Shown here: in pieces, positions 4,704 through 28,082 of the stretch
Layout of the letters: the number at the start of each line of letters is the position of its first letter
How positions within the stretch are numbered: the stretch's first letter is position 1
Source: Oleidesulfovibrio alaskensis DSM 16109
Lineage (GTDB): Bacteria > Desulfobacterota > Desulfovibrionia > Desulfovibrionales > Desulfovibrionaceae
Assembly (NCBI RefSeq): GCF_000482745.1
Contig: NZ_AXWQ01000007.1
Location: 122,865 to 154,864, forward strand
Reading direction: 5' to 3'
DNA: 32,000 nucleotides
Notes under the pieces: model-generated
Seen by the model: the letters and a program-made list of their open reading frames with translations, nothing else
What the model was told of the DNA's origin: nothing
The model's database searches: none
Position numbers and translations under genes: made by a program

Positions 4704-5104
4704 GATGGCGCGGTACGACACAGGATGAAGTGGTCAACGATATCGATCTGACACCCATGATCGACATGGTTTTCATTTTGCTGATCTTTTTTATTGTATC
4801 CACAAGTTTTATCAAAGAATCCGGCGTGGTGGTGGAACGTCCCGCTGCGGCTACGGGCGAAGGCCGTCAGGTGCAGGTGGTTGTGGCCATAGACAGCGAC
4901 AACGTGCTGTGGATGGAAGGTGAAAGTGTTGATATCCGCTCGCTGGAGTCGCGCATGGCGGGGCTGCTGGCGGAAAAAGACAACCTTGCGGTGATTGTGG
5001 CTGCCGATGTGCAGTCCAGTTCCGGTGTGCTGGTGCGCGCCATCGACCTGTGCCGTCAGGCCGGAGTGCGCGATGTGAGCGTGGCCACCAAGGATGCGCC
5101 ATGA
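4700..5104 (+). CDS. exbD: ExbD/TolR-family biopolymer transport protein
   Basis: 134 aa. Single N-terminal TM with the conserved Asp context (DLTPMIDMVFILLIFFIV), then a periplasmic domain (VVVAIDSDNVLWMEGESV...AVIVAADVQSSSGVLVRAIDLCRQAGV). ATGA overlap at 4700-4703. Confidence 0.9.
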   Translation: MRWRGTTQDEVVNDIDLTPMIDMVFILLIFFIVSTSFIKESGVVVERPAAATGEGRQVQVVVAIDSDNVLWMEGESVDIRSLESRMAGLLAEKDNLAVIVAADVQSSSGVLVRAIDLCRQAGVRDVSVATKDAP

Positions 5105-5772: not shown

Positions 5773-5789
5773 AGGGCATGGAGGTGGTT

Positions 5790-7043
5790 ATGACCGGATA
5801 TGCCATGCTTGAACGATTGTGGCACACCCCGGCGCGGCAGATGCGGTTGGCGGTGCTGTGCGTGGCTGTATGCACAATGCTGCCGGTGCTGTGCGACAGC
5901 GCGTTGGCGGGCGTCCGCTCCGTGACGGCCATGGAATACGAGATATTCACGGAAGCCAAGCGGCTTGCGGACAAAGGCCGTCACGATATGGCCGCAGAAA
6001 AGATGGCCGTGTACTTCCGCCGTTATTCGGACAGGCATCAGTACGCGTACGAGCTGTACGGGGCCGTGCTGCTGGAGATGAAACGCGAAGACCTGGCGGT
6101 TTCCGTGCTGCGTGAAGGCGCCGGAGAGTATGCCGACAGCGGGTCGCTGGCCCAGATGCTGGGCACGGCGTTGTACCGGGCCGGAAAGCCGCTTGAGGCT
6201 GCCGACGCCTTTTTGAAGGCGTATGCGCTTTCGGGAGAGGCCAAAACGTATCTGGCATATTCGGCCGCGGTGTTTCTGGCCCGCGGCGAACAGTACGGCA
6301 GGGCCGCCGCCGTACTGCGCCCTCTTACGGGCAGGGCGGAAGCGAAAGCCGACTGGCATATTCTGCTTGCCCAGTGCCTTATGCGGCAGGACAAATTGCA
6401 GGAAGCGGCGCAGGGACTGCGCGCCGCAGTGCGGGTGTACCCTGAAGATGCCAAGGTGTGGCGCATGCTGGGCCTTGTTTATTACCGGCAGGGACTGCGC
6501 GACAAGGCTGCGGCAACCTATGAGATAGCGCACAAACTTGCACCGCCCAGCAGCCGCGAATCAGCCCAGCTTGCTTCGCTGTATTGTTCGCTGGGGGCTC
6601 CCTCTCTGGGGGCCCGCGCGGTGGGTGAAGCTCCGCCGACTCCGGAAATGCTGGACAATCTGGCACATTCGCTGGCCCGCGGAGGCGATCTGCCCGCTGC
6701 GCTGGAACATGCGCAGAAGGCCTTGGAACAGGCCCCCACTGATGACCGCCGTTTCAGAAAAGGGCAGATACTGCTGCGTATGGAAAAAAAGGCCGAGGCT
6801 GCGGTTGTTTTTGGCGATCTGGCAGCAGGCGGGGGGCGTCTGGCGCGCAAGGCCCGCTGGATGCTGGCCGTGATGGCGTGGAATGACGGGGACTGGCAGC
6901 AGGCGCGGGTCGAGCTTGAAAAACTGGCTTCGGGAGGGGACCGCATGGATAAACGTGCCAGAAGGCTGCTGGGAATTCTTGATCAGGTTTCCGGCGGCGC
7001 GGAACATGAAGGCAGACAGCAGAAAGAGGGCTCCGCTTCCTGA
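5790..7043 (+). CDS. Tetratricopeptide-repeat protein (TtpD-like last gene of TonB2-type clusters)
   Basis: About 417 aa. Signal-like N-terminus (MRLAVLCVAVCTMLPVLCDSALAG) and repeated TPR-like helical pairs (e.g. AKVWRMLGLVYYRQGLRDKAAATYEIAHKLAP). I chose ATG 5790 because GGAGGTGG sits 2-9 nt upstream; the track start at 5688 would overlap tonB. Confidence 0.7.
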   Translation: MTGYAMLERLWHTPARQMRLAVLCVAVCTMLPVLCDSALAGVRSVTAMEYEIFTEAKRLADKGRHDMAAEKMAVYFRRYSDRHQYAYELYGAVLLEMKREDLAVSVLREGAGEYADSGSLAQMLGTALYRAGKPLEAADAFLKAYALSGEAKTYLAYSAAVFLARGEQYGRAAAVLRPLTGRAEAKADWHILLAQCLMRQDKLQEAAQGLRAAVRVYPEDAKVWRMLGLVYYRQGLRDKAAATYEIAHKLAPPSSRESAQLASLYCSLGAPSLGARAVGEAPPTPEMLDNLAHSLARGGDLPAALEHAQKALEQAPTDDRRFRKGQILLRMEKKAEAAVVFGDLAAGGGRLARKARWMLAVMAWNDGDWQQARVELEKLASGGDRMDKRARRLLGILDQVSGGAEHEGRQQKEGSAS

Positions 7044-14035: not shown

Positions 14036-14701
14036 ATGGAAGATTTCTGGAGAATACGCGCCACGGACACCGCATGGAAAGGTGTGCTGCATCTGGCGTC
14101 GCCGCGCAGGTACAGCAGGGGCGAAGTGATTATCCGCGCCGGAGAAATGGTGGACAGCCTGTTTTATCTCGAATCCGGCGAAGTGCGCATGATCCGTACC
14201 AGTATGGAAGGATCGGAAAAGATCCTGATGTACATCGAGGAAGGCACTCTGTTCGGCGAAACGCCGTTTTTTACCGGTCAGCCCATCCTGAGCACGTTTG
14301 TGTGTTCGCGGCCTGCGGTTATCTGGCGCTTTTCGCGGCACAGCGTCTATGCCGATCTGCTGCCCAACCATCCGGAAATCGTCAGTTCGCTGCTGCACAC
14401 GTTTGCGGCAAAGGTGAGCACGCTCAGCAACCAGTCCGCCTCGCTGGGACTGCAGAATGTGGCGGAGCGGCTGTGTACGTTTTTGTATGTCACCAGCGGC
14501 GAGAGCATATCCGGTGCCCATGGCGCCGAACTGAAACTTTCCATGAAAATGCGCGATATCGCCAACCTGCTGGGCGTGCATCGCACCACGCTGTACAAAG
14601 CCATCCGCGATCTTGAAAAAGAGGGTGTGCTGGAAAATTTTACCAGAGACAGTGTGCGCATTGCCGATGTGACGCGGTTTCTGGAAATGGTGCATAAATA
14701 A
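14036..14701 (+). CDS. Crp/Fnr-family transcriptional regulator
   Basis: 221 aa. N-terminal cNMP-binding-like beta-barrel (GEVIIRAGEMVDSLFYLESGEVRMI...GTLFGETPFF) and a C-terminal HTH (MKMRDIANLLGVHRTTLYKAIRDLEKEGVL). There is no FNR-type N-terminal Cys cluster. A GGAGA RBS sits 5 nt upstream. Confidence 0.85.
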   Translation: MEDFWRIRATDTAWKGVLHLASPRRYSRGEVIIRAGEMVDSLFYLESGEVRMIRTSMEGSEKILMYIEEGTLFGETPFFTGQPILSTFVCSRPAVIWRFSRHSVYADLLPNHPEIVSSLLHTFAAKVSTLSNQSASLGLQNVAERLCTFLYVTSGESISGAHGAELKLSMKMRDIANLLGVHRTTLYKAIRDLEKEGVLENFTRDSVRIADVTRFLEMVHK

Positions 14702-15133: not shown

Positions 15134-16051
15134 ATGGAAACCAGACAGGTTGATGTGCTTATACTGGGCGGCGGGGTGGCCGGCATGACCGCCGCCGTTT
15201 ACGCCGCCCGCGCGGGGCTGCGTGTGACGCTGCTGGAGGAGAATGCCTGCGGCGGGCTGGTAAACTGGACGCGTGTTGTCGAAAATATGCCGTCCTACAT
15301 CAGCATACCCGGCATGGAACTGGCCGACCGCATGGCGGAACAGGTGGCCGCGCTGGGGGTGGATGTGGAAGAGGCCGCCTGCATTGAAGAAATATCACTC
15401 GCGGCCGGAGACAAAACTGTCGTGGCCGACGATGTGCGGTATGAGGCCCGTGCCGTCATTGCCGCCACGGGGCGCAGGCCGGTGCTGCTGGACTGTGCCG
15501 GCGACTGCTGTCAGGTGCATTACTGTGCCATATGCGACGGCAGCGCGTACAAGGGCCGGCACGTGCTGGTGGTGGGCGGCGGCAACAGCGGATTTGACGA
15601 GGCTCTGGCCCTGCTGGACACGGGTGTGGCACGGGTGACTCTGATCGAGGCGCAGGACAGGTTTTTTGCCGCGGCCGCGGCGCAGCGTGCGCTGGCCGCC
15701 CGTGAGGGTGCAGTCATGTATACCTCCACGCGGGTGACGCAGCTGCACGGGACGGATGCTCTTGAGTCCGTCACGCTGACCCGTGCAGACGGTTCGGAAC
15801 AGCAGCTGCCGTGCGACGGAATATTTGTGTTCATGGGGCAGGAGCCAAGCACGCAGCTTTTCCGCGGGCAGCTGGAACTGGACGCACAAGGCTACGTAGT
15901 CACTGACGGCCTGATGGCCACATCGGTGCCCGGCGTGTTCGCGGCGGGTGACGTGCGGCCCAAGCGTTACCGGCAGATAACCACGGCCCTGTCTGACGGC
16001 ACCGTGGCCGCGCTGGAGGCGGAAAGGTATATCCGCCGTACGGCGGGCTGA
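15134..16051 (+). CDS. trxB: Low-molecular-weight thioredoxin-reductase-like flavoprotein (TrxB family) lacking the NADPH 2'-phosphate motif
   Basis: 305 aa. FAD GxGxxG (ILGGGVAGMTAA), redox-active CAIC (15524-15535; compare CATC in E. coli TrxB), a second dinucleotide fold (VVGGGNSGFDEA) and the C-terminal GVFAAGDV...YRQ...A..DG motif. Where the HRRDxxR motif is expected, the sequence reads IEAQDRF (15644-15664). Confidence 0.88.
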   Translation: METRQVDVLILGGGVAGMTAAVYAARAGLRVTLLEENACGGLVNWTRVVENMPSYISIPGMELADRMAEQVAALGVDVEEAACIEEISLAAGDKTVVADDVRYEARAVIAATGRRPVLLDCAGDCCQVHYCAICDGSAYKGRHVLVVGGGNSGFDEALALLDTGVARVTLIEAQDRFFAAAAAQRALAAREGAVMYTSTRVTQLHGTDALESVTLTRADGSEQQLPCDGIFVFMGQEPSTQLFRGQLELDAQGYVVTDGLMATSVPGVFAAGDVRPKRYRQITTALSDGTVAALEAERYIRRTAG

Positions 16052-16085: not shown

Positions 16086-16502
16086 ATGATGCGCGGCGGC
16101 TCCGGATTTTCGCGTCCTTTCCGGCTGACGCTGTATGACCCAGACCCGCGCCGGTGCCGGGCCACGGCGGATATGCTGCGTCGCGAGCTGGGCCGGCATG
16201 TGTTTCGGGACTTGCGCGGCGGCGTTGTTTCGGCCAATGTCACCGAAGTTGCCTGTTATCTGGCCATAGCCCGGCAGGGATACGCCGACAGTGTTCCCGT
16301 GCTGGAGCTTGACGGCGTTCCGCTGAGCCGGTGTCTGGTGCTGGAACCGCCTCATGTGCGCAGCTTTGCCGCATGGCTGGAGCAGCAGGCGCAAAAGGAA
16401 GACAGGGGCGGTTCTCAGCCGCCCTATCTGCAGCATTGTGGCGGCAGGTTCCCCGACAGGAGTCAGGAGAGCGAACTTATTTTTCCGGAGGATAAACCGT
16501 GA
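16086..16502 (+). CDS. Hypothetical small protein, possibly a degenerate thioredoxin/glutaredoxin-like fold
   Basis: 138 aa, with genome-typical G/C-ending codons. Its last codons carry the GGAGGA RBS (16487-16492) for the next gene, and its TGA overlaps the GTG start of that gene (GTGA at 16499-16502). The pattern RLTLYDPDPRRCRATADMLRREL ... SVPVLELDGVPL loosely resembles a Grx beta-alpha-beta / cis-Pro layout with only one Cys. I recognise no family confidently. Confidence 0.5.
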   Translation: MMRGGSGFSRPFRLTLYDPDPRRCRATADMLRRELGRHVFRDLRGGVVSANVTEVACYLAIARQGYADSVPVLELDGVPLSRCLVLEPPHVRSFAAWLEQQAQKEDRGGSQPPYLQHCGGRFPDRSQESELIFPEDKP

Positions 16503-18997
16503 ATCCCATTGAGAAACTGTGTAGGGACGAGGCCGGCAACTCTGCCGTGCTTCAGGGGAACATCGCTTTTGCCGTGGGCTGCGTGCGCGCCGGCATCCAT
16601 GCCGCGGACGGTTATCCCGGCACACCCAGTTCCGAAGTGATAGATAAAGGCCTTTCGCAGGTGCAGGACATGATCGCCGTGGGATGGTCCGTCAGCGAGG
16701 CCGTGGCCGCCGGTGTGGGGCACGGACATTCTCTGGCCGGACGCGACTGCGTCGTGACCATGAAAATACCCGGCCTGTATCAGGCGGGTGACATATTCAC
16801 CAGCGTGGCCACCTATACCGCTGACCGCGGCGGGCTGATATTTTATGTGGCCGCCGACTATACACCCAGTTCCACGCAGCACGTCATCGACCCCCGCTAC
16901 CTGTACAAAAGCTGCTTTGTTCCCGTTTTCGAGCCGCGAACCCATCAGGAACTGCACGAGTCGGCGCTGGTGGCGGTGGAAATAGCCCGCCGGTTCAATA
17001 CGCCCGTGGTTATCCAGCCCAGCGGCGTGCTGTGCCACAGCGAAGGCCTCGTGCGCATGATGCCCGTCACTTCCCGCGAGCCTGCTCCGGTGTCTCCGCT
17101 GCGGCTGCAGAACTCTCTGCCCGTGTTTGCCCGCGCCAACTACGACAAAGTTATGGCCGAACGCATGCCCGGTCTGCTGGAAATGGTGGAGCAGAGCCCC
17201 CTCAATGTGCATATCAAAGGTTCGGGCAAGCGCGGTGTCATCACCCACGGCATCAACTCCATGTACATGGATGAGTACCGGGCGCTGTTCGACAACGACA
17301 TCGATATCCTCTCGCTGGGATTCACCAACCCGCTGCCCATGGAAAAAATCCGCAATTTCTGCGAATCCATCGAAGGCGAAGTGTTTGTCATCGAGGACGG
17401 CTACCGCTTTATTCAGGAAGCATGCGGTGCCGCAGGTCTGAAGGTGACCGGCAAGGAAGAATACAGCAACGTGACGGAATGGACGCCTGCCAGCATTGCG
17501 GCATTTCTGGGCCAGCAGGCCGCGGCGGCTCCCCGTCCGCAGGCTGCGCCTGTGCCGCGTCCGCCCATGATATGCGCCGGATGCCCGTACCGCCTGTTCG
17601 GCGAAGTGGTTGCCCGTATGAAGCGCAAAGGCGAGATTGAAGCCGTTTTCGGTGACATAGGCTGTAATACGCTGCTGTATTTTCTGGGTGCGCTTGATAC
17701 AGGCCTTGCCATGGGCGCCAGCGAAAGCAAGCGTACCGGCTATGTTCTTTCCAAGCCCGAATCGGTGAGCAAATGCATCAGCCTGCTGGGCGACGGCACA
17801 GAATGCCACAGTGGCATGGATGCCACCAGAAATGCCGTGTTCCGCAACGTGGCCGGTGTAAAGGTGGTGCTGGACAACGAATGGACAGCCATGACCGGCG
17901 GTCAGCCCGGTCCTACTTCTCCCGTCAACCTTGCGGGCGACCCCACACGGTTTGATCTTGTGGCATCGCTCAAGGCGCAGGGGGCGGAAGTGGCGCTCAT
18001 CGACGCATACGACATGAAAAGCGTGCGCAAAGGGCTCAGGGCAGCGTTGAAAGCCGCGGAAGACGGCACCTTTACCACGCTTGTCATCCGCGGCACCTGT
18101 ATCCGCAAGGTACCCGCAGCCGATTACGGCCAGAAGCTTATCGTGGATACCGAAAAATGCGTACAGTGCGGCGCGTGCAATATCTGCTCGGGCATTCAGC
18201 CTGATGAAAACGGTGTGCCTTTCTGGAACAACCTGTGCACCGGCTGCGTTTCCAAGACTCCGGCCTGTCTGCAGATGTGCCCCAAGGGTGCCATAGCGGT
18301 GGATACCGAATGCAGCACCGGCGCCTGTGCCGAAAAGCCCGTACTGCCCGAAGCTCCTGAACATATCGATGTGCCTGTGCTTACCGATGCCCAGCGTCCC
18401 GCTCGTCTCAGCCTCGGGATCCGCGGTGTGGGCGGGCAGGGCAACCTGTTCTTCGGCAAGGCGCTGGCGCAGATGGCGTTCATCGCCGGTTACGGCGAAA
18501 AGAATATCCTGAAGGGCGAAACCCACGGTATGGCCCAGATGGGCGGTCCCGTCATTTCCACATTTGCCTGCGGCGACGTGCACAGCACCCAGTTTGTGCC
18601 GGGTACGGCTGATGCGCTTATCGTCATGGAGCAAAGCGAAGTGCTGCGCCCCGGTTTTCTTGATATGCTGCGCCCCGAAGGCACTGTTCTGCTGGCGGAA
18701 ACCGTCATTGTGCCGCAGGGCTTCGACCCGGAAAAATACCCCACCAGACAGGCCATTGACGAGCTGCTTTCGGGCTGCAACGTGGTGCGTATCGACGTGC
18801 TGAAGATGGCCCTTGCACTGGGAGACGAACGCGGCCGCTGCGCCAACGTGGTCATGCTGGGTGCGCTCAGCAGGCTGTCGCCGTTTGACGCCTTCCCCGT
18901 TGAGGTATGGCTGCAGGCGCTTAAAAAAGTCAGCCCCCGTCCCGCGGTATGGACACTGAACCACGCCGCCTTTCTGCAGGGGCGCACACTGGTGTAG
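16499..18997 (+). CDS. Fused IorA-IorB-type 2-oxoacid (indolepyruvate/arylpyruvate):ferredoxin oxidoreductase
   Basis: 832 aa. IorA-like N-terminus (LQGNIAFAVGCVRAGIHAADGYPGTPSSEVID), a TPP-binding region (GDIGCNTL ... LLGDGTECHSGMDA...VLDNEWTAMTGGQP), two ferredoxin-type Cys motifs (CVQCGACNICSG; CTGC...CLQMCPKGAI), then an IorB/gamma-type domain (LGIRGVGGQGNLFFGKALAQ). GTG start with a strong RBS. Confidence 0.85.
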   Translation: MNPIEKLCRDEAGNSAVLQGNIAFAVGCVRAGIHAADGYPGTPSSEVIDKGLSQVQDMIAVGWSVSEAVAAGVGHGHSLAGRDCVVTMKIPGLYQAGDIFTSVATYTADRGGLIFYVAADYTPSSTQHVIDPRYLYKSCFVPVFEPRTHQELHESALVAVEIARRFNTPVVIQPSGVLCHSEGLVRMMPVTSREPAPVSPLRLQNSLPVFARANYDKVMAERMPGLLEMVEQSPLNVHIKGSGKRGVITHGINSMYMDEYRALFDNDIDILSLGFTNPLPMEKIRNFCESIEGEVFVIEDGYRFIQEACGAAGLKVTGKEEYSNVTEWTPASIAAFLGQQAAAAPRPQAAPVPRPPMICAGCPYRLFGEVVARMKRKGEIEAVFGDIGCNTLLYFLGALDTGLAMGASESKRTGYVLSKPESVSKCISLLGDGTECHSGMDATRNAVFRNVAGVKVVLDNEWTAMTGGQPGPTSPVNLAGDPTRFDLVASLKAQGAEVALIDAYDMKSVRKGLRAALKAAEDGTFTTLVIRGTCIRKVPAADYGQKLIVDTEKCVQCGACNICSGIQPDENGVPFWNNLCTGCVSKTPACLQMCPKGAIAVDTECSTGACAEKPVLPEAPEHIDVPVLTDAQRPARLSLGIRGVGGQGNLFFGKALAQMAFIAGYGEKNILKGETHGMAQMGGPVISTFACGDVHSTQFVPGTADALIVMEQSEVLRPGFLDMLRPEGTVLLAETVIVPQGFDPEKYPTRQAIDELLSGCNVVRIDVLKMALALGDERGRCANVVMLGALSRLSPFDAFPVEVWLQALKKVSPRPAVWTLNHAAFLQGRTLV

Positions 18998-19013
18998 GCC
19001 CATGTGATACCAA

Positions 19014-19045
19014 GGCCCGGAGTGTGACGCTTCGGGCCTTTTTTT
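19014..19045 (+). terminator. Rho-independent terminator/attenuator between the oxidoreductase and the acyl-CoA synthetase
   Basis: Hairpin ggcccgga (19014-19021) / ttcgggcc (19031-19038) with a 9-nt loop, followed by a 7-T run (19039-19045). Confidence 0.6.
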
Positions 19046-19085
19046 ACCCCGCAACACACTGTAAAAAATTTGAAAGAGCCTCCGC

Positions 19086-21548
19086 ATGAGCATGACCATT
19101 CCCATTGATTATTCGCGCATAACGGATCTGTTCCGCACCGCGCGGGAAGAAGGCCGTGATTTTCTGTATGAGTACGAGGTCTACACCCTGCTTGCCAGTT
19201 CCGGAGCGGAAACCCCGCCGCGGGCGAATCTGATTCCCCGCGGGGCCAGACCCTCGGACGAGGAACTGATGGCCATTCCCGGAGACAGGGCCGTGCTCAA
19301 GATTGTCTCGCCCGCCATTGTGCATAAGACCGAAGTGGGCGGAGTGCGCATTGTGGAAAAAACGCCGGACCGCATCCGCTCCGCCATGCGGCGCATGCTG
19401 TATGAAGTGCCGGAGAATTTTGCCGCCTGCATAGAACGCGACCCCGACCATGCCCCGCTGCCGTACAGAGGCCTGCGCGGAGAAACATTACAGGCTGCCA
19501 TCAGCAGAGACCTGAAGGGGGTACTGCAGGTACAGTTCATGCCGCCGGATTCCGGTGCGTTCGGCAATGAACTTATTGTGGGCCTGCGGCGCACGCGCGA
19601 GTTCGGAACTGTGATAAGCGCCGGTCTGGGCGGTACGGATACCGAGCTGTATGCCGAGCGCTTCCGCAAAGGGCAGGCCGTTGTGGCCGCGTCCACCCAG
19701 CTGACGGACGAGGATGCTTTTTTCGAGCTGTTCCGCAAAACCATTTCGTATCGCAAGCTGGCCGGTCTGACACGGGGACAGCAGCGCATTGTCACCGATG
19801 AACAGCTGGTGGAATGCTTCGGGTCGTTCATCCGCATGGCACGTTATTTTTCCGACGCCAACCCGCAAGCGCCTTTTGTCATTGATGAGCTGGAAATAAA
19901 TCCCTTTGCATTCAGTGATTACCTGATGGTGCCGCTGGACGGCCTGTGCCGTTTCAGTGAACCGGCACAGCCGGCCAACGTCCGGCCCGTGGCAAAAATA
20001 GACAGACTGCTGCACCCGCGGTCGATCGGTATTGCCGGTGTTTCAGCTTCCCGCCGCAATTTCGGGCGTATTATTCTGGAAAACGTGCTCAACGAAGGTT
20101 TCGGGGCTGAAAACGTCACGGTGTTCCGTCCCGGTGCTGCTCCGGGCGATACGCAGGAAGGCGTACGCGTGCTGCCGGAACTGGCCGCGCTGGGGCTTGA
20201 TGCGGCAGGCGGCAAGGTGGCGCCGCAGAATGCGCTTGATCTGTTTGTAGTGGCTGTGGGGGCACAGCAGGTGCCCGATATGGTGGATGAGATCATCAGA
20301 CTGGGGGCTGCCCACAGTGTTATGCTCATACCCGGCGGCATGGGTGAAACAGAAAACAGCCGTGAACGTGCGGCGCGCGTCATAGCGCGCATCAACGATG
20401 AACACGGCAGGGGCGACGGCGGGCCGGTGTTTCTGGGCGCCAACTGCATGGGGGTGGTTTCCCGTCCGGGCCGGTATGATACATGGTTCATTCCGGAGCA
20501 GAAACTGCCCAAGGACAGAAGCGGCACCTGCCACAGGGCCGCGCTTGTCAGCCAGAGCGGCGCGTTCATGCTGCACCGCAGCAGCCAGTGCCCCGAACTG
20601 AAACCCGCCTATATGATATCCATGGGCAACCAGACAGACCTGACGCTGGGAGACATGGTCACATATTTCAAGGACAGCGATGCGGTGGATGTCATCGCTG
20701 TATACGCCGAAGGATTCAATGATCTTGACGGGCTGGCATTCTGCCGCGCTGTGCGCGAAGCTGTCATAGCCGGAAAGGAAGTTGTTTTTTACAAGGCCGG
20801 GCGCACGCCGGAAGGCCGCAGCGCCACCAGCGGACACACTGCTTCGCTGGCCGGCGATTATATGGTCTGCGAAAGCTGCGTACGTCAGGCCGGAGCCATT
20901 GTTGCCCGCACCTTTACCGAGTTTCAGGAGCTTTTTCTGCTGGCGGAGAAGCTGTACGGCAAAAAAGTGCGCGGCACCCGGCTGGCGGCTGTGAGCGGAG
21001 CGGGCTTTGAGGCCGTGGGCATGGCGGACTCCATCCAGTCCGACGATTACCGCATGGAACTGGCGTCGTTTTCCGCTTCAACAGTGGCAGCCATAAGCGA
21101 ACTGCTGCGTGGCAAAAAACTTGATGCGCTGGTTACGGTAACCAACCCGCTGGACATCAATCCCGCCGCCGATGACGAAGTGCACGCCGAAGTGGCCCGC
21201 CTGCTGGCGGCAGACCCCGCTGTGGACGCCGTTGTCATCGGACTTGACCCGCTGTCACCCGCGGTGCACACGCTGGACAGTCCCGATGTGCCGGATTTTT
21301 CCATTCATGAAGAAGGTGCCGTGACACGCCGCATCATACAGGTGGCTGCCTGCAGTGATAAGCCCGTGGTGGGCGTGGTGGACGGCGGCAGGTTGTTCGA
21401 CCCCATGCGGGCGCAGGTGCTGGCCGGCGGAGTGCCGGTGTTTTCCGTATGCGACAGGGCTGTCTCTTCACTGGCTGTGTACATAGAAGGCAGGCTGCGG
21501 GCGGACATACTGCGGGCCTGTGTCCATGACAACAGCTGCAACGGCTGA
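19086..21548 (+). CDS. ADP-forming acyl-CoA synthetase (NDP-forming acetate/aryl-acetate--CoA ligase family), fused beta-alpha order
   Basis: 820 aa. N-terminal ATP-grasp part (YEVYTLLASSG...LKIVSPAIVHKTEVGGVRIV), then a CoA-binding Rossmann part (RSIGIAGVSASRRNFGRIILENV), a phospho-His loop (SGHTASLAG) and a CoA-ligase flavodoxin-like part (RLAAVSGAGFEAVGMAD). Confidence 0.85.
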   Translation: MSMTIPIDYSRITDLFRTAREEGRDFLYEYEVYTLLASSGAETPPRANLIPRGARPSDEELMAIPGDRAVLKIVSPAIVHKTEVGGVRIVEKTPDRIRSAMRRMLYEVPENFAACIERDPDHAPLPYRGLRGETLQAAISRDLKGVLQVQFMPPDSGAFGNELIVGLRRTREFGTVISAGLGGTDTELYAERFRKGQAVVAASTQLTDEDAFFELFRKTISYRKLAGLTRGQQRIVTDEQLVECFGSFIRMARYFSDANPQAPFVIDELEINPFAFSDYLMVPLDGLCRFSEPAQPANVRPVAKIDRLLHPRSIGIAGVSASRRNFGRIILENVLNEGFGAENVTVFRPGAAPGDTQEGVRVLPELAALGLDAAGGKVAPQNALDLFVVAVGAQQVPDMVDEIIRLGAAHSVMLIPGGMGETENSRERAARVIARINDEHGRGDGGPVFLGANCMGVVSRPGRYDTWFIPEQKLPKDRSGTCHRAALVSQSGAFMLHRSSQCPELKPAYMISMGNQTDLTLGDMVTYFKDSDAVDVIAVYAEGFNDLDGLAFCRAVREAVIAGKEVVFYKAGRTPEGRSATSGHTASLAGDYMVCESCVRQAGAIVARTFTEFQELFLLAEKLYGKKVRGTRLAAVSGAGFEAVGMADSIQSDDYRMELASFSASTVAAISELLRGKKLDALVTVTNPLDINPAADDEVHAEVARLLAADPAVDAVVIGLDPLSPAVHTLDSPDVPDFSIHEEGAVTRRIIQVAACSDKPVVGVVDGGRLFDPMRAQVLAGGVPVFSVCDRAVSSLAVYIEGRLRADILRACVHDNSCNG

Positions 21549-21580
21549 CGGAGGCACTCTGTCCGGCCTGTTGACATTCA

Positions 21581-21611
21581 GCGGCCGCGGCATCAGTCGC
21601 GGCCGCATTTT
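21581..21611 (+). terminator. Possible weak terminator hairpin after the acyl-CoA synthetase gene
   Basis: 9-bp perfect stem gcggccgcg (21581-21589) / cgcggccgc (21598-21606), followed only by a short T-stretch (attttcat). Confidence 0.3.
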
Positions 21612-22246
21612 CATAGAACTGCGGACGGAGTGGCATGCTGTGTAAAGCCGATGTGACAGTGGCGGCCAGTGCGGTCGGTGCGGCCGGTGTGTGCTGCACA
21701 AAACCATTCCGTTGTTCTGTGTTCCCGCGCATACGGTCACGTTTCTGCTTCCGGCGGCGCTGCAGACACTCTTTGTCGCCCTGCCGGGCATAGTGCGGGG
21801 GGCTGCCTGCCATGGCTGCCCTGCGCAGTCCCAAAGCGCGGTCTGATTTTTTTATATCTATCCAGTCGGCCTTCCCGGGCGGCGCGGGCTGTAAAGACGC
21901 CTGTGCCGCCCTTTTTATATGCGGCACGCAAGTCCGTCACGGCATAGAGCAGTATCCGTGCGTGCGGTACCTGATGGCGTCTGTACCGGCGTTACCTTTA
22001 TTTTTTGCCGTAAACACACATGTACTTTATGATTGATAGTCAAGATGAATGGCGTGAGTGCATGCTTGAACTGTGTTCATGCAGCAGTTTTTTACAATGC
22101 ATAAAAATGACTTGTCCTTTTTATCTGTACGGGAGTAAGGCAGGCGTGTCCGTAAGCCAAGTGTAAAATGCGGCTGCTACGGAATGCAACAGCAACGCCG
22201 GAATGCAGTTACTGCTTTCCGGCATACTGCGTACAGGTGGTAAAAG

Positions 22247-24406
22247 ATGAAAGAAGTATTAACAACGTGTCCTTACTGCGGTACAGGGTGCGCTTTTTAC
22301 CTTCAGGTGCATGACGATACTGTGACAGGAGTCCGTCCGGCCGTCAGCAACACGGTGAATAAAGGCAGGCTGTGTTCCAAGGGGCATTTCGGCTTTGATT
22401 TCATTCACCATGGTGACCGGCTGAAAACTCCGCTTATCCGCAGGGATGGCCGGCTGGTGCCCTGCAGCTGGGAAGAAGCCTACGATTGTATCACATCGCG
22501 GCTTTCAGAGATTATCCGTCAGAGCGGGCCCGATGCCGTGGCAGGATTCAGTTCCGCCCGTTGTACCAACGAAGAAAATTATCTGATGCAGAAGTTCATG
22601 CGTGCGGCCGTCGGCACCAATAATGTCGACCACTGCGCCCGTCTCTGACACGCTCCCACCGTGGCCGGTCTGGCCGCAGCATTCGGAAGCGGAGCCATGA
22701 CGAATTCCATTGATGAACTGGAGAGCATGGGGGCCGGCGATGTGATTTTTGCCGTGGGTACAAACACCACGGAATGCCATCCGGTCATAGGGGCCAATAT
22801 GCTTCAGGCCGTGCGTCAGGGGGCCCGTCTGGTGGTGGCCGACCCGCGCGCTGTTACGCTTGCGGCGCACGCCGCGGTGTGGCTGCGTCTGCGTCCCGGC
22901 ACTGATGTGGCGCTGCTGAACGGCATTGCTCATGTGATTATTTCCGAAGGTCTTGCCGACGAGGCATTCATCGCGCAGCGCACCGAAGGATATGCGGCGT
23001 TCCGCGAAACCGTGCTGCGCTGCACGCCGCAAAAGGCATCGGCAATCACAGGCGTACCGGCGGACGACATCCGCTCCGCGGCACGCATTCTGGGCTGCGC
23101 CGCCAACGTCTCCACCTATTACACCATGGGCATCACGCAACACACCTCCGGCGTGGACAATGTGCGCGCCGTGGCCAACATCGCGCTGCTTACCGGTAAT
23201 GCGGGGCGGCCGGGTACAGGGGTCAATCCGTTGCGCGGACAGAACAATGTGCAGGGCGCATGCGATATGGGTGCCCTGCCCGATGTTTTGCCCGCGTACC
23301 AGCGTGTGACCGACCCTGCCGTGCGTGAGCGCTTTGCGGCCGCGTGGGGCAGAGAAGTTCCCGGAAAGCCGGGGTTGCGCATACCTGACGTGCTGCACGG
23401 GCTGGAACACGGCACTGTGCGGGCTTTGTATGTTTTTGGTGAAAATCCCATGCGCAGCGATCCTGATGTGGGCCATGTGGAACACTGTCTGGACGCTGCG
23501 GAGTTTCTGGTGGTGCAGGATATTTTTCTTACCGAGACAGCCGCAAAGGCGCATGTGGTGCTGCCGGGAGCGTCCTTTGCCGAAAAGGACGGCACGTTTT
23601 CCAGTACCGAACGCAGGGTGCAGCGCATCCGCAGGGCGGTGCCCCCCGCAGGCGGCAGCCGCCCGGACTGGCAGATACTCAGCGAGCTTCTGACCCGTAT
23701 GGGGGCAGGGCCGGAGTATGGTTCGCCGGAGGAAATATTTGACGAAATGCGGGCGCTGACCCCCAGTTACGCAGGCATAACCTATGCCCGTCTGGAAAAG
23801 GGCGGCCTGCAGTGGCCTTGCCCGGATGTTGATCATCCGGGCACGCCGGTGCTGCACCGGAACGCATTTATGCGCGGCCGGGGGGCTTTTCTTGCCGTGG
23901 AGCACCGTGAACCGGCGGAACTGCCGGATGACGCGTATCCGCTGATGCTGACCACCGGAAGGGTTGTTGCCCATTATCATACCGGCACCATGACCCGCCG
24001 CTGCTGGGGGCTGAACGGCGTGGCCCCTGAAGAGCAGGTGGAGCTGCATCCTGACGATGCGGCGCCTCTGGGAATAGCCGACGGCGATATGGTGCGGCTC
24101 ACTTCGCGCCGGGGCAGTATGACCGCGCGGGTGCATGTGACCGAAAAAACCATGCGCGGTCTGGTCTTTGTCACATTCCACTACAGCGAAAGCTGCGGCA
24201 ACGTGCTGACCAACAGCGCGGCAGACCCTGAAACAGGCACCGCGGAACTGAAAATATGTTCGGTGCGCGTGGAAAAAGCAGACCGGCAGGGCCCCTGTCC
24301 GGCGGATACCGCCGAACGGCGGCCGGTGGCGGCTGCTCAGAAACACTATTCCGAACCGGCGGTGCATCCTGCCGGAACACCGGAGAAAATATGCAATCCC
24401 AGTTGA
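22247..24406 (+). CDS. fdhF: Selenocysteine-containing cytoplasmic formate dehydrogenase (FDH-H type, Mo/W-bisPGD), UGA-134 read as Sec
   Basis: Track ORFs 22247..22648 and 22661..24406 are in the same frame and separated only by TGA 22646-22648. The joined sequence reads [30 protein letters not shown], the conserved FDH active-site context (Sec followed by His). The N-terminus MKEVLTTCPYCGTGCAFYL is the FdhF-type [4Fe-4S] motif, with no Tat signal. The joined product is 719 aa, close to E. coli FdhF in size. An AGGTGG RBS lies 6 nt upstream. Confidence 0.9.
22649..22677 (+). promoter_or_regulatory. Bacterial SECIS element directing Sec insertion at UGA 22646-22648
   Basis: 12 nt after the UGA there is a hairpin gtggcc (22661-22666) / ggccgc (22672-22677) with loop GGTCT. 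As I recall it, the E. coli fdhF SECIS has the same 12-nt spacing and the same GGUC(U) apical loop. Confidence 0.65.
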
Positions 24407-24996
24407 GTGATTTTGTGGTGGCAGATGCCTCGCGCTGCATAGGCTGCCGCGTGTGCGAGGTGGCCTGCGCCGTGGCGCACAACGCTACAGGCAAGGAACA
24501 CCCCGTGGCCGGCAATCTGGACAGCCCGTTGCTTCCCCGTCTGTATCTGGTGCGCACGCCGCTGGCCACAGCCCCTGTGCAGTGCCGTCACTGCGAGGAT
24601 GCCCCCTGCGCTGCAAGCTGCCCCGCAGGTGCCATCAGACGTAAGGACGGCGCACTGGTGGTGGAAGAGGCCCGCTGTGTGGGCTGCAAGACCTGTATGC
24701 TGGCCTGCCCGTTTGGCGCCGTGGAACTGGTGCCTGTATACGCGCAGGGTCGTGCCGTCATGCAGACCGTGCAGACAGAGGACGGGGGTGTATGCACGGT
24801 TTCTCCGGTCATGGTGGCCGTCAAATGCGATATGTGCACCGGCAGGCAGGCAGGACCGGCGTGTGTGCAGGCCTGCCCCTGCGGCGCTTTGCGCATGGCC
24901 GCGGTGAGTGATCTGCGCCGCAGACGCTGCGCGCAGGCTGCGGCCGGACTGGCAAAATACGTGACGGCATTGCATCCGGAGGACGGAAGGTCATGA
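24391..24996 (+). CDS. hycB: HycB/HydN-like poly-ferredoxin (four [4Fe-4S] binding motifs), electron-transfer subunit
   Basis: 201 aa. Cys motifs CIGCRVCEVAC, CRHCEDAPCAASCP, CVGCKTCMLACP and CDMC...CVQACP. ATG 24391 follows GGAGAA and overlaps the fdhF 3' end by 16 nt; the track start at 24256 lies inside fdhF. Confidence 0.85.
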   Translation: MQSQLSDFVVADASRCIGCRVCEVACAVAHNATGKEHPVAGNLDSPLLPRLYLVRTPLATAPVQCRHCEDAPCAASCPAGAIRRKDGALVVEEARCVGCKTCMLACPFGAVELVPVYAQGRAVMQTVQTEDGGVCTVSPVMVAVKCDMCTGRQAGPACVQACPCGALRMAAVSDLRRRRCAQAAAGLAKYVTALHPEDGRS

Positions 24997-26369
24997 ATGG
25001 ACAGCAGAATGTGATACGCATTGACAGCGATATATGCACGGGCTGCGGCCGGTGCAAAGATGTCTGCCCCGTGGGGGCGGTGGAAGGGGTGCAGGGGACG
25101 CCGCACAGTATCAGAGAGGATGTCTGCGTATTGTGCGGGCAGTGCGTGCAGCAGTGCAGTGCTTTTGCCTCTTTTTACGAACAGCACCCTGCCTGCATTG
25201 CCGAAAAGAAGCGGGAAAGAGGCCTTTTTGTTTCGGAGGCAGCACCGCTTTTTGCCGCATGGCACACGGGGGATGCACCGCGGGTGGCCAGTCGTCTGGC
25301 AGAAGGCTGCCACAGCATGGTTCAGTGTGCGCCAGCCGTGCGTGCTGCCATCGGCGAAGAGTTCGGTATGCCTGCGGGGGCGCTGACCCCCGGAAGGCTG
25401 GCCGCAGCATTGCGCAGGCTGGGATTCGACAGGGTTTACGACACCAATTTTGCAGCCGACCTGACCATAATGGAAGAGGGCAGTGAGCTGCTGCAGCGTA
25501 TGGAAGGCGCCGGACCGCTGCCCATGTTCACGTCGTGTTGCCCCGCATGGGTCCGTTATGCCGAACAGCAGTTCCCCGACCTGCTGGAACATCTTTCATC
25601 CTGCAAGTCTCCGCAGCAGATGGCCGGAGCCGTTTTCAAGTCGTACGGGGCGCAGCTGGACGGTGTGGACCCGCGGCAGGTTTTCAGCGTGGCGGTGATG
25701 CCCTGTACCTGCAAAAAGGCAGAAGCGCAGAGACCCGGGATGGAGCATGACGGGGTGCGTGATGTGGATGCGGTGCTGACCACCGGCGAGCTTGCGGCCA
25801 TGCTGCGTCAGGCGCACATAGATTTTGCCGCTTTGCCCGACGAGCCGTTTGACCGGCCTTTGGGCAGCTACTCAGGTGCCGGGAACATTTTCGGACTGAC
25901 CGGCGGAGTGATGGAAGCCGCGCTGCGTACTGCCTATGAACTGGTGACCGGAGAACCCGTGCCCTGCACGGAACTGGTGTATGTGCGGGGCGGCGAAGGA
26001 ATCCGGCACGCAACCCTGACCATGGACGGCCGCACCTTCCGCGTGGCTGTGGTGGCCGGATTGCAGCATGTGCGTCCGCTGCTGGAAGCCGTGCGCGCGG
26101 GTACCTGTGATGTGAATTTTGTGGAGGTGATGTGCTGCCCGCAGGGCTGCATAAGCGGCGGGGGCCAGCCCAAAGTGCTGCTGCCTTTTCAGCGGGATGA
26201 GGTGTATGCCGCGCGCAAGGCGGCGCTGTACCGCCACGATGCCGAGCTTGCCTGCCGCAAATCGCATGAAAATCCGCAGGTGCAGGCGTTGTACCGTGAG
26301 TTTCTGGGCGAACCTCTGGGCCATGTTTCGCACAGTCTGCTGCATACTGTTTACGGCCAGACGCGTTAG
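24993..26369 (+). CDS. hydA: [FeFe]-hydrogenase catalytic subunit (two N-terminal ferredoxin-type clusters plus H-domain), cytoplasmic
   Basis: 458 aa. All three H-cluster signatures are present: FTSCCPAWV (L1), MPCTCKKAE (L2) and EVMCCPQGCISGGGQP (L3). N-terminal motifs are CTGCGRCKDVCP and CVLCGQCVQQC. No signal peptide. ATGA overlap with the upstream gene at 24993-24996. Confidence 0.92.
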   Translation: MNGQQNVIRIDSDICTGCGRCKDVCPVGAVEGVQGTPHSIREDVCVLCGQCVQQCSAFASFYEQHPACIAEKKRERGLFVSEAAPLFAAWHTGDAPRVASRLAEGCHSMVQCAPAVRAAIGEEFGMPAGALTPGRLAAALRRLGFDRVYDTNFAADLTIMEEGSELLQRMEGAGPLPMFTSCCPAWVRYAEQQFPDLLEHLSSCKSPQQMAGAVFKSYGAQLDGVDPRQVFSVAVMPCTCKKAEAQRPGMEHDGVRDVDAVLTTGELAAMLRQAHIDFAALPDEPFDRPLGSYSGAGNIFGLTGGVMEAALRTAYELVTGEPVPCTELVYVRGGEGIRHATLTMDGRTFRVAVVAGLQHVRPLLEAVRAGTCDVNFVEVMCCPQGCISGGGQPKVLLPFQRDEVYAARKAALYRHDAELACRKSHENPQVQALYREFLGEPLGHVSHSLLHTVYGQTR

Positions 26370-26379
26370 GGAGGCTAAG

Positions 26380-26874
26380 ATGAATGCTTTTATTGTGGCG
26401 GACCCGCACCGGTGCATCGGGTGTGCCGCGTGCGAGGTGGCGTGTGCCGCGGCGGCGGCAGGTCAGTCCGTGTTTGCCCCCGGGGGACAGTCAGCCGTAT
26501 TCAGCCCCCGGCTGCATCTGGTGGCGGAAGCTGCGGTTACAGCGCCGGTGCAGTGCCGGCAATGCGCCGATGCTCCCTGTGCGGCAATTTGTCCGCGCGG
26601 AGCCATACGGATGGCGGAGGGCGTGGTCACCGTGGACAGCGGGCTGTGCATCGGCTGCAAAATGTGCATGGTGGCGTGTCCGGTGGGGGCCATTGAGGTG
26701 CGGGGCGGCAGGGCGTCCAAGTGCCAGCTGTGCACGGACCGTCCGGAAGGTCCGGCCTGTATGCAGGTGTGCCCTGCGGAAGCATTTACGCTGGTGCGTG
26801 CGCAAACCCTGCGCGCCGAACTGGTGCGCCGCAGAGCGGCCGGATTATGCCCGGCTGCTGATGCGCGGCCCTGA
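26380..26874 (+). CDS. hycB: Second HycB/HydN-like poly-ferredoxin (four [4Fe-4S] binding motifs)
   Basis: 164 aa. Cys motifs CIGCAACEVAC, CRQCADAPCAAICP, CIGCKMCMVACP and CQLC...CMQVCP. ATG 26380 follows GGGAGG (26369-26374); the track start at 26197 lies inside hydA. Confidence 0.85.
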   Translation: MNAFIVADPHRCIGCAACEVACAAAAAGQSVFAPGGQSAVFSPRLHLVAEAAVTAPVQCRQCADAPCAAICPRGAIRMAEGVVTVDSGLCIGCKMCMVACPVGAIEVRGGRASKCQLCTDRPEGPACMQVCPAEAFTLVRAQTLRAELVRRRAAGLCPAADARP

Positions 26875-26920
26875 CAGTAGGTCGGGCTGTAATGCCGGAT
26901 GCTGTCTGATGTGCATTGAA

Positions 26921-26954
26921 CGCCGTATCCTGTAAAAGGATACGGCGTTTTTTT
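26921..26954 (+). terminator. Rho-independent terminator of the fdhF-hycB-hydA-hycB operon
   Basis: Perfect 10-bp stem cgccgtatcc (26921-26930) / ggatacggcg (26938-26947), 7-nt loop, then 7 T (26948-26954). Confidence 0.8.
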
Positions 26955-26981
26955 ATTTGCGGCCGGTAGGGTGCGGCAGGG

Positions 26982-28082
26982 TTACCAGACTGTGCCGGAC
27001 AGGGCGTCGCCGATAAGTTTTTCCATACGGGTGCGGAAAAACGGGGCATCCCATGCGGCAGCATGTGCGGCGATGTCAGCGGCTGAAAAGTCCACCCCGC
27101 TGGATTCAAAGCGGCTGATGGCTTCTGCCAGACATTGCGCGGTCTGCTGCCCGAAAAACAGTCCCGTGCGGTTGTCCTGCACCGTTTCCAGCGCGCCGCC
27201 TCTGCCGTAGGCGATGACAGGAGCGCCTGAAGCCATGGCTTCCAGCGGTATGATGCCGAAGTCTTCCGTTCCGGGAAAAAGGAGTGCCTTGCAGCGGGAG
27301 TAGTGGTCTGCAAGTACGTTGTCCGGCTGGCGCCCCATGATGTGCACCGTAGGGCCGGCCATGCGGCGCAGCATCGGTTCCATGGAGCCGCCGCCTATGA
27401 CGACAAGGGGTTTTGCCAGCGCGTTGCAGGCCTGCACGGCAAGCTCGGGCCGCTTGTAGGGTGCCAGTTCGCCGGCATACAGATAAAAATCGTCGCGTTG
27501 TGGAGAGTATGAAAACTGTTTTACATTCACAGGAGGATGTATAATGCGGCTTGCCCGCCTGTAGCATTTGTCAATGCGTTTTGCTACGTACTGCGAATTG
27601 GCGGCAAAGCGGTCAACCCTGTCTGCTGATGCTCTGTCCCACAGGCGCAGGTAATGCATCACGGGTGCAGCTAAAAGACGCTTTATCCGGCCGCTCTGCT
27701 CCATATAGTCGTGATACATGTCCCACACATACCGCATGGGGCTGTGGCAATAGCACAGATGCAGTGTGTCAGGCGAGGTTATTATTCCTTTGGCAGGTCC
27801 GGATTCGCTGGAAATGACCAGATCATAGCCGCGCAGGTCCAGCTGTTCGAGAGCCAGAGGCATGAGCGGCAGGTAGTACTGGTACAGTCTGCGCGCGCGG
27901 GGCAGACGCCCGATGAACGATGTGTGTATGCGGTGGCGGGTAATGACGGAAGACGCGAACTGCGCGGGGTCGTACATATGCGTGTAGATATCCGCATGGG
28001 GAAACATGTGGCAGAGTTCTTCAAGAACCCGCTCCCCCCCGCGTCTGTTGACCAGCCAGTAATGTACAAGTGCAGTTTTCAC
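26982..28082 (-). CDS. Glycosyltransferase family 4 (group 1, retaining GT-B)
   Basis: 366 aa. N-terminus typical of this subgroup (MKTALVHYWLVNRRGGERVLEEL) and a C-terminal E-x7-E region (FPGTEDFGIIPLEAMASGAPVIAYGRGGALETV). Confidence 0.85.
   Translation of the reverse strand: MKTALVHYWLVNRRGGERVLEELCHMFPHADIYTHMYDPAQFASSVITRHRIHTSFIGRLPRARRLYQYYLPLMPLALEQLDLRGYDLVISSESGPAKGIITSPDTLHLCYCHSPMRYVWDMYHDYMEQSGRIKRLLAAPVMHYLRLWDRASADRVDRFAANSQYVAKRIDKCYRRASRIIHPPVNVKQFSYSPQRDDFYLYAGELAPYKRPELAVQACNALAKPLVVIGGGSMEPMLRRMAGPTVHIMGRQPDNVLADHYSRCKALLFPGTEDFGIIPLEAMASGAPVIAYGRGGALETVQDNRTGLFFGQQTAQCLAEAISRFESSGVDFSAADIAAHAAAWDAPFFRTRMEKLIGDALSGTVW

Follow-up and report, generated by a model that had tools for sequence, protein, structure and literature searches.

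Organization of the four-gene unit

The stretch of DNA analysed here (the window, 32,000 nucleotides of Oleidesulfovibrio alaskensis DSM 16109) carries on its plus strand a four-gene unit for a formate dehydrogenase, an [FeFe]-hydrogenase and two polyferredoxins, which is a candidate for a soluble complex of the hydrogen-dependent CO2 reductase (HDCR) kind. The six-frame list of open reading frames (ORFs), together with direct reading of the letters, gives the order fdhF, a first hycB-like gene, hydA and a second hycB-like gene; the products of the hycB-like genes are called HycB-I and HycB-II below. fdhF (22247..24406, +) starts with the ATG at 22247, stops with a TGA ending at 24406 and encodes 719 residues. 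The first hycB-like gene (24391..24996, +; 201 residues) encodes a predicted ferredoxin with four [4Fe-4S] clusters of the Thermoanaerobacter kivui HycB4 type. hydA (24993..26369, +; 458 residues) encodes an [FeFe]-hydrogenase resembling the HydA2 type, and the second hycB-like gene (26380..26874, +; 164 residues) a compact ferredoxin, again with four predicted [4Fe-4S] clusters.

The genes are tightly packed. The ATG of the first hycB-like gene at 24391 precedes the end of fdhF, giving a 16-nt overlap, and hydA begins at 24993 within an ATGA overlap. The TAG stop of hydA is followed by a 10-nt gap and the ATG of the second hycB-like gene at 26380, with GGAGG ahead of this start. On the 5' side, the unit is limited by a terminator-like hairpin (21581..21606, +) with an 11-bp stem, ten G-C pairs and a T-rich tail; it closes an acyl-CoA synthetase gene, lying 33 nt past the stop of that gene at 21548. 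On the 3' side, an intrinsic terminator on the plus strand (about 26918-26950/26957) consists of a 14-bp stem, GAACGCCGTATCCT...AGGATACGGCGTTT, and the T-run TTTTATTT. The next gene, for a glycosyltransferase, lies on the opposite strand (26982-28082). The four genes are one transcription unit, a real operon. The packing and the strong terminator had been claimed in a preliminary description made from the letters alone; its coordinates and junctions were reproduced exactly, and the hairpin with its T-run was found downstream of the second hycB-like gene.

The same description had stated that no membrane subunit is encoded, and this also holds: the genes stand between terminator-like hairpins, with an acyl-CoA synthetase gene and a glycosyltransferase gene as neighbours. 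Genes for a NuoE/NuoF-like bifurcation subunit or for membrane subunits were not found in or beside the unit. A relative, Oleidesulfovibrio sp., has 64-77% amino-acid identity over the four proteins. The ratio of nonsynonymous to synonymous substitution rates (dN/dS) against this relative is 0.07-0.12 in all four genes, values that are rough since dS is saturated, and the comparison indicates that the four genes are under purifying selection.

The formate dehydrogenase subunit

FdhF is composed of the Pfam domains Molybdop_Fe4S4, Molybdopterin and Molydop_binding, and it scores 846.6 bits against the NCBIfam model TIGR01591, for which the cut-off is 666. Among all PDB chain sequences, its top match is FdhF of the T. 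kivui HDCR (7QV7; 2.6e-229), and the same search finds homology to E. coli FdhH (2.1e-183). Cys8, Cys11, Cys15 and Cys43 are intact, as are the selenocysteine (Sec) 134-His135 pair and the arginine at 330 in RGQNNVQG. Neither a Tat (twin-arginine translocation) motif nor a membrane-helix-like hydrophobic span was found in FdhF, HydA or the two HycBs.

The selenocysteine residue is encoded by the only in-frame TGA (22646..22648, +) within the motif HCARL-U-HAP. This codon is retained in Oleidesulfovibrio sp., Maridesulfovibrio, Sporomusa and Candidatus (Ca.) Adiutrix, and is replaced by TGT (Cys) in Paenibacillus and Pelosinus. A bacterial selenocysteine insertion sequence (SECIS) element is matched at 22643..22701 (+) by the Rfam model SECIS_3 over the full model length (E = 6e-10); the score of 49.1 bits is below the Rfam gathering score of 63, so that the element was found at the E-value threshold. 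The match begins at the TGA, and equivalent matches occur at three orthologous loci (L082, L084 and L086), namely those of Oleidesulfovibrio sp., Maridesulfovibrio hydrothermalis and Sporomusa carbonis, which have both the TGA and SECIS_3. In the minimum free energy fold of the element, the apical hairpin has 6 bp and the loop GGUCU. The fold energy is no better than that of shuffled sequences (z = -0.2) in this G+C-rich coding context, and it is the covariance-model match, together with its conservation, that carries the case for the SECIS element. FdhF is thus very probably, as judged from homology and motifs, a cytoplasmic, selenocysteine-containing formate dehydrogenase (FDH) or CO2 reductase with a Mo/W-bis-pyranopterin guanine dinucleotide (bis-PGD) cofactor. 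This agrees with the earlier assignment as a cytoplasmic Sec-containing FDH-H, given the TIGR01591 score above the cut-off, the Sec motif, the SECIS match and the lack of a Tat signal.

At the 5' end of fdhF, a ribosome-binding site, AGGTGG (22235..22240, +), lies 6 nt ahead of the ATG at 22247, and Oleidesulfovibrio sp. shares the surrounding block ACAGGT.G..AAAGATGAAAGAAGT. The C-terminus of FdhF is a separate observation. A Pro/Ala-rich tail of about 43 residues extends past the Molydop_binding domain (24275-24406, residues ~677-719), and the last 16 nt of its coding sequence overlap the start of the first hycB-like gene. The tail is unaligned in the Oleidesulfovibrio sp. orthologue, for which the tblastn match ends at residue 678; it is probably disordered and fast-evolving.

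The [FeFe]-hydrogenase subunit

HydA contains the Pfam domains Fe_hyd_lg_C (1.3e-97) and Fe_hyd_SSU (7e-23) behind two ferredoxin-type [4Fe-4S] motifs, and it scores 437 bits against the NCBIfam model TIGR02512 (cut-off 406). The two motifs are N-terminal, and the H-domain is fused to a tail that resembles a small subunit. The three H-cluster motifs are TSCCPAW (180), MPCTCKKAE (236) and EVMCCPQGCISGGGQP (378), and the eight accessory cysteines are invariant across relatives. A cytoplasmic [FeFe]-hydrogenase with all three H-cluster signatures had been proposed, and the motifs, together with the lack of a Tat signal, bear this out. The top PDB match is T. kivui HydA2 (7qv7_D) with 619 bits (6e-185) over residues 2-455. 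Periplasmic [FeFe] enzymes follow with 404 bits and the bifurcating HydA1 with about 350 bits, leaving a gap of about 215 bits to any other hydrogenase. By its similarity to HydA2, the protein is assigned to group A4.

These scores bear on an alternative in which the operon encodes an electron-bifurcating FDH/hydrogenase of the Clostridium autoethanogenum FdhA/HytA-E type, which would reduce NAD(P)+ and ferredoxin as well. The best NCBIfam score of HydA, 537 bits, is to the NADH-dependent group A6 model, and some database entries name homologues of HydA as HndD. However, the group A6 score is under the cut-off of 765 and covers the H-domain alone. The hairpin-bounded unit has no NuoE/NuoF-like gene (HytB/C/D, HydB/C) in it or beside it, and HydA, with 458 residues and two accessory clusters, lacks the extra N-terminal clusters. 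Placement with the bifurcating or sensory hydrogenases had been raised at the outset as a point that would speak against an HDCR; HydA instead sides with the HDCR-type HydA2 (619 bits) and not with the bifurcating HydA1 (about 350 bits) or with sensory enzymes. We consider a bifurcating enzyme extremely improbable.

The two HycB-like subunits

Both HycB-I and HycB-II contain Fer4-type domains only, with four complete Cys motifs and 16 ligand cysteines each, as expected for the four-cluster HycB/HydN-type ferredoxins that the preliminary description had placed second and fourth. Both are homologous to E. coli HycB (about 1e-27 to 1e-31). In the PDB search, HycB-I is closer to T. kivui HycB4 (191 bits, 2.3e-55) than to HycB3 (139 bits, 1.6e-39). 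HycB-II also has a higher score with HycB4 (120 bits, 7.5e-34) than with HycB3 (108 bits, 4e-30). The AlphaFold2 (AF2) model of HycB-I has a predicted local distance difference test score (pLDDT) of 71, and its top Foldseek match is 7qv7_B, with template modelling (TM) scores of 0.69/0.75. For HycB-II (pLDDT 69), Foldseek gives a tie between 7qv7_A and 7qv7_B, that is, between HycB3 and HycB4. In a neighbour-joining tree, with bootstrap values from numpy distances, HycB-I is placed in one group with T. kivui HycB4 and the HycBs encoded directly upstream of hydA (bootstrap ~0.6), and HycB-II falls with those HycBs of Pelosinus and Ca. Adiutrix that are adjacent to FdhF (bootstrap ~0.7). HycB-I is thus probably the HydA partner (HycB4 type), and HycB-II is tentatively assigned as the FdhF partner, equivalent to HycB3. 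In Acetobacterium woodii, the HydA-binding type corresponds to HycB3 and the FdhF-binding type to HycB2.

The models predict C-terminal helices at residues 172-194 of HycB-I and 141-156 of HycB-II, which align with the filament helices of T. kivui HycB4 (190-210) and HycB3 (159-184), over residues 190-207 and 159-170, respectively. In the T. kivui structure, these helices cross-link the enzyme into nanowire filaments. HycB-II deviates between cluster motifs 3 and 4: a stretch of about 35 residues, found there in T. kivui HycB3 and HycB4, in E. coli HycB and in most homologues, is missing from it. In the HycB-I model, the segment equivalent to this gap forms β-strands. The minimal second HycB (162-164 residues) occurs in both Oleidesulfovibrio genomes (26380-26874 in the window and L082 9384-9872), and the lengths are intermediate in Maridesulfovibrio, Adiutrix and Pelosinus. 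Since the segment is absent from HycB-II, the subunit contacts may differ from those in T. kivui.

Comparison with known complexes

The T. kivui HDCR (FdhF-HycB3-HycB4-HydA2, PDB 7QV7) has the same four subunit types, is likewise soluble, and supplies the best PDB match for every product of the operon. A count of 12 [4Fe-4S] clusters is stated for the T. kivui enzyme, and the same number is predicted here: one in FdhF, four in each HycB, two in HydA and the cubane of the H-cluster. The predicted cofactors beyond these 12 clusters are the di-iron site and bis-PGD. C-terminal helices are present in the HycBs of both systems, those of the window being AF2 predictions. There are also distinct differences. 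The gene order in T. kivui is fdhF-hycB3-hycB4-hydA2-fdhD, whereas in the window it is fdhF-hycB(B4-like)-hydA-hycB with no fdhD; FdhF of T. kivui uses Cys and that of the window Sec; HycB3 and HycB4 of T. kivui both carry the ~35-residue segment, whereas HycB-II, with 164 residues, does not; and T. kivui is an acetogen, whereas the host of the window is a sulfate reducer.

The HDCR of Acetobacterium woodii (FdhF1/2-HycB1/2/3-HydA2) similarly combines a soluble FDH, an [FeFe]-hydrogenase and two HycB subunits, and its FdhF2 isoform contains Sec. Its cluster, however, has seven genes (fdhF1-hycB1-fdhF2-hycB2-fdhD-hycB3-hydA2) with duplicated fdhF and hycB and an internal fdhD, and the role of the enzyme is the Wood-Ljungdahl pathway's first step. 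The order fdhF-hycB-hydA-hycB had been described as differing from the acetogen loci, with no fdhD inside, and the T. kivui and A. woodii orders confirm this. A parallel in gene arrangement is CbFdh/Hyd of Clostridium beijerinckii (PMC12905484, 2026), where hydA also lies between hycB1 and hycB2 and the host is not an acetogen. Its upstream HycB1 resembles T. kivui HycB4 and its downstream HycB2 resembles T. kivui HycB3 (PMC12905484), and the same pairing would apply in the window. This complex has been purified as a stable heterotetramer with both formate hydrogenlyase (FHL) and HDCR activities (PMC12905484). The C. beijerinckii system differs from the window in that its FdhF uses Cys, its fdhF and hydrogenase genes lie in two predicted operons with maturation genes, and its host is a Firmicute.

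E. coli FHL-1 (FdhH + Hyc; PDB 7Z0S/7Z0T) shares homologous FdhF and HycB subunits and the same overall reaction. Its hydrogenase, however, is the [NiFe] enzyme HycE/G on the membrane subunits HycC/D, and none of these genes is in the window. No NiFeSe_Hases, Complex1 or Proton_antipo domain was found among the scanned window ORFs of at least 150 residues. The claim that the operon differs from the enterobacterial Hyc/[NiFe] type therefore stands: the hydrogenase is an [FeFe] enzyme, and [NiFe] or membrane-subunit domains are missing from the scanned ORFs.

Proposed reaction and subunit assembly

From homology, the operon very likely encodes a soluble cytoplasmic HDCR, or a soluble complex of the FHL kind (FDH-linked group A4 [FeFe]-hydrogenases), that would catalyse the uncoupled reaction H2 + CO2 ↔ formate. 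This reading is well supported, because the subunits of 7QV7 are the best relatives, the motifs are intact, there is no bifurcation or membrane subunit, and the genes are under purifying selection. An HDCR/FHL-like complex based on an [FeFe]-hydrogenase had been proposed from the letters alone, and the match of all four products to the T. kivui HDCR places that proposal on a firmer footing. We infer from this relationship complex formation, direct H2:CO2 and formate:H+ activity, the pairing of the subunits, filamentation and the physiological direction.

By analogy with the T. kivui structure, the Mo/W-bis-PGD site of FdhF, with its Sec residue, would oxidize formate or reduce CO2. Electrons would pass from the [4Fe-4S] cluster of FdhF itself into a chain of eight [4Fe-4S] clusters in the two HycB-like polyferredoxins, and from this chain, via both accessory clusters of HydA, they would reach the H-cluster as the site of H+/H2 turnover. 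The net reaction, H2 + CO2 ↔ formate, would be reversible, with no membrane or bifurcation coupling. Both HycBs keep the predicted C-terminal helix, the element that polymerizes the T. kivui enzyme into filaments; a similar assembly may form here.

The same genes might alternatively encode two separate ferredoxin-linked enzymes, FdhF with one HycB and HydA with the other, coupled through the soluble ferredoxin pool. Separate function of the two halves has some precedent: a truncated T. kivui FdhF-HycB3 is active alone with viologen, fdhF and hycB-hydA-hycB of C. beijerinckii are split over two predicted operons (PMC12905484), and a hycB-hydA-hycB trio in Solidesulfovibrio has no fdhF in the 7 kb upstream. 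A 2-oxoacid:ferredoxin oxidoreductase-like gene, which also adjoins the window unit, would suit a ferredoxin-linked pair. Against this, translational coupling through the overlaps (16 nt and ATGA) and the interleaving of the genes, in which a HycB of the HydA-partner type directly follows fdhF, argue for stoichiometric co-assembly. The predicted C-terminal helices of the HycBs align with those that tie T. kivui HycB3 to HycB4, and in C. beijerinckii a stable heterotetramer is formed even though the operons are split (PMC12905484). Two separate enzymes are, in our judgement, quite unlikely, and a single HDCR-type complex is preferred.

The Wood-Ljungdahl pathway is not expected to operate in Desulfovibrionaceae. 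For this reason, the HDCR-type complex would more likely act as a cytoplasmic formate/H2 valve than as the first step of CO2 fixation.

Identity of the locus and mutant phenotypes

An exact-sequence look-up shows that HydA is identical to WP_027181722.1 and HycB-I to WP_034618801.1, both from O. alaskensis. The two proteins share 90%-identity clusters with the O. alaskensis G20 proteins ABB37276.1 and ABB37275.1, respectively, and HydA of the window has 99% identity to the representative of the cluster that it shares with the G20 protein. In their supplement, Price et al. 2014 (PMC4215793) give PCR primers for a 'Formate-hydrogen lyase' composed of Dde_0473 (FDH alpha), Dde_0474 and Dde_0475. 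Each of the six primers has an exact counterpart in the window (0 mismatches): those for Dde_0473 inside fdhF (23112 and 23778-23797), those for Dde_0474 across the first hycB-like gene, with the reverse primer just inside hydA (24403 and 25012-25031), and those for Dde_0475 inside hydA (25356 and 25966-25985). Since all six match, the window holds the orthologue of the published locus; the operon is the G20 fhl locus Dde_0473-0475 plus the following gene, in another strain of the same species. The two differ only at strain level, and the published data on the G20 locus are genome annotation and mutant growth, without biochemistry.

As cited by Price et al. 2014 (PMC4215793), the locus was proposed as a cytoplasmic FHL by Pereira et al. 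2011. Schuchmann, Chowdhury and Mueller 2018 (PMC6288185) name 18 organisms that have putative HDCR gene clusters; D. alaskensis is one of them, and five of the 18 are sulfate reducers. The novelty implied in the preliminary description was therefore overstated: the locus had been published as G20 fhl, the species appears in the 2018 list, and the gene order is common. The reading itself is correct but not new, as the enzyme kind and the locus are already known, and biochemistry in another organism has since validated the gene arrangement of this kind.

Several points weigh against the HDCR assignment. On both formate/acetate/sulfate and lactate/sulfate, G20 fhl mutants showed parent-like growth, and pooled fitness assays gave no importance to any of the four FDHs (Price et al. 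2014, PMC4215793). We found no biochemistry of this enzyme in the literature for any sulfate reducer, nor any purification or any condition where it matters. Within the 32-kb window, fdhD, hydEFG, selABD and tRNA-Sec were not found. At the level of the subunits, the AF2 models of the HycBs are moderate in confidence (pLDDT 69-71), the assignment of HycB-II is weak in its score difference, Foldseek tie and bootstrap value, and this protein lacks the ~35-residue segment. As for the accessory genes, hydrogenases of the periplasmic [FeFe] and [NiFeSe] types are in use in G20 (Price et al. 2014, PMC4215793), so that H-cluster maturation and Sec insertion are presumably present in the species.

The mutant data also raise the question of whether the operon is cryptic or dispensable, with intact genes that make no measurable contribution under known growth conditions. 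Besides the parent-like growth of the fhl insertion mutants, Dde_0473 and Dde_0475 had fitness near zero over 12 energetic conditions (PMC4215793). Several features stand against such a loss of role. The four ORFs are intact, with dN/dS around 0.1 against a relative at 64-77% identity, conservation extends to the Sec codon, which is costly, and to the SECIS match, and the cluster is kept in several Desulfovibrionaceae genera. A missing phenotype would also be expected if the periplasmic FDHs and hydrogenases were redundant with the complex, and the neutral phenotypes fit such redundancy. We therefore regard a cryptic operon as very improbable and retain the reading of a functional HDCR-type complex.

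Gene order in other genomes

The loci of relatives were surveyed by exact-protein look-ups. The order of the window is found in Oleidesulfovibrio sp. (GCA_047973035.1), where the flanking synteny is also kept, in Maridesulfovibrio hydrothermalis and in Paenibacillus brasilensis. Sporomusa carbonis has the same order with mobA inserted and fdhD upstream. Ca. Adiutrix has the T. kivui order, and in Pelosinus the genes form two separate pairs, hycB-hydA and hycB-fdhF. The exact-protein look-up for Desulfotalea P0109 gave no match. The contigs were also scanned with a HydA alignment through motifs common to all [FeFe]-hydrogenases (ADLTIMEE and PMFTSCCP); among the matches listed, most were unrelated Firmicute hydrogenases, and those of L001, L002, L004 and L005 alone looked HydA2-like. 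The flanks of L004 gave no FdhF match above 200 bits. As judged from these loci, hycB-hydA-hycB is a widespread arrangement that is not peculiar to this organism.

One further locus was observed in Solidesulfovibrio sp. (GCA_054813325.1; L085 4728-15383), where a hycB-hydA-hycB trio follows focA-like and mobA-like genes. Its HydA is 61% identical to that of the window in a MAFFT alignment. The trio directly precedes genes for a Hyf/Ech-type [NiFe] membrane hydrogenase (Proton_antipo_M, NADHdh and NiFeSe_Hases), and no fdhF was found within the 7 kb upstream of it. An HDCR-type [FeFe] module and a membrane [NiFe] FHL-like module are thus placed in unusual adjacency.

Region upstream of fdhF and neighbouring genes

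The intergenic region between the acyl-CoA synthetase gene and fdhF is 698 nt long (21549-22246). It contains a 51-codon ORF (21691-21846, +), of which 28 residues (21691-21774) match residues 182-209 of a 230-residue membrane protein by tblastn with 75% identity. In Oleidesulfovibrio sp., the gene of this protein, for which no Pfam family was found, is intact between the acyl-CoA synthetase gene and fdhF (L082 4126-4818). In the window, the first ~180 codons are gone and the C-terminal part survives. Because of this match, part of the supposed long leader of fdhF is the 3' remnant of a decayed gene.

A candidate σ70-like promoter, TTGCCG-17-TATGAT, lies at 22005..22033 (+); it is the sole consensus match in 21400-27200, which is weak evidence as shuffled sequences average 1.8 sites. 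Searches for Rex-box-like and σ54-like motifs found none upstream of fdhF and no excess over shuffles. An Rfam scan of the whole window at the gathering threshold gave no match, so the leader would contain no molybdenum cofactor (Moco) or other riboswitch; at the E-value threshold, SECIS_3 was the only meaningful hit. At ~22055-22145, the alignment with Oleidesulfovibrio sp. retains short conserved blocks (GTGAGTGC, AACTTGTC and GGAGTAAG.CAG), while the rest of the upstream region has diverged, and these blocks match neither a Rex nor a σ54 consensus nor an Rfam family.

Directly upstream of the fdhF unit, 16499-21548 (+) encodes an 832-residue fused 2-oxoacid:ferredoxin oxidoreductase-like protein (POR_N, TPP_enzyme_C and POR) and an 820-residue NDP-forming acyl-CoA synthetase. 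This synteny is kept in Oleidesulfovibrio sp. with 79% nucleotide identity, and not in Maridesulfovibrio. A functional link through ferredoxin between these genes and the fdhF unit is possible. Further upstream, about 8 kb from the operon, lies a gene for a CRP/FNR-family regulator (cNMP_binding and HTH_Crp_2; 14036-14698, +), which adjoins a pyridine nucleotide-disulphide oxidoreductase gene (15134-16048). A TonB-type energy-transduction cluster (1856-7040, +), comprising DUF3450, two MotA/ExbB, ExbD, TonB_C and a TPR protein, sits downstream of an ABC ATPase gene and is unrelated to the operon.

The minimal HycB and the synteny with the 2-oxoacid oxidoreductase and acyl-CoA synthetase genes raise the idea that the sulfate-reducer form is a functionally distinct HDCR variant. 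Such a variant would serve mainly as a ferredoxin-fed, H2- and formate-releasing sink in fermentative or syntrophic 2-oxoacid oxidation, with a filament that is possibly altered or absent. We hold this to be unlikely. If it were true, the role of the variant would differ from that of the H2-driven CO2 reductase in acetogens.

Biological implications

Among known biological catalysts, soluble HDCR-type enzymes hydrogenate CO2 the fastest, and they link the H2 and formate pools in anoxic habitats. Publications have recorded such an enzyme in the Desulfovibrio group since 2011, and there are mutants. The present analysis strengthens the published annotation by homology, tentatively assigns the two HycBs to their catalytic partners and gives evidence that the hycB-hydA-hycB order is widespread. 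That sulfate reducers of the Desulfovibrio group would carry an HDCR-type enzyme is relevant to formate/H2 cycling, to syntrophy and to biotechnology.

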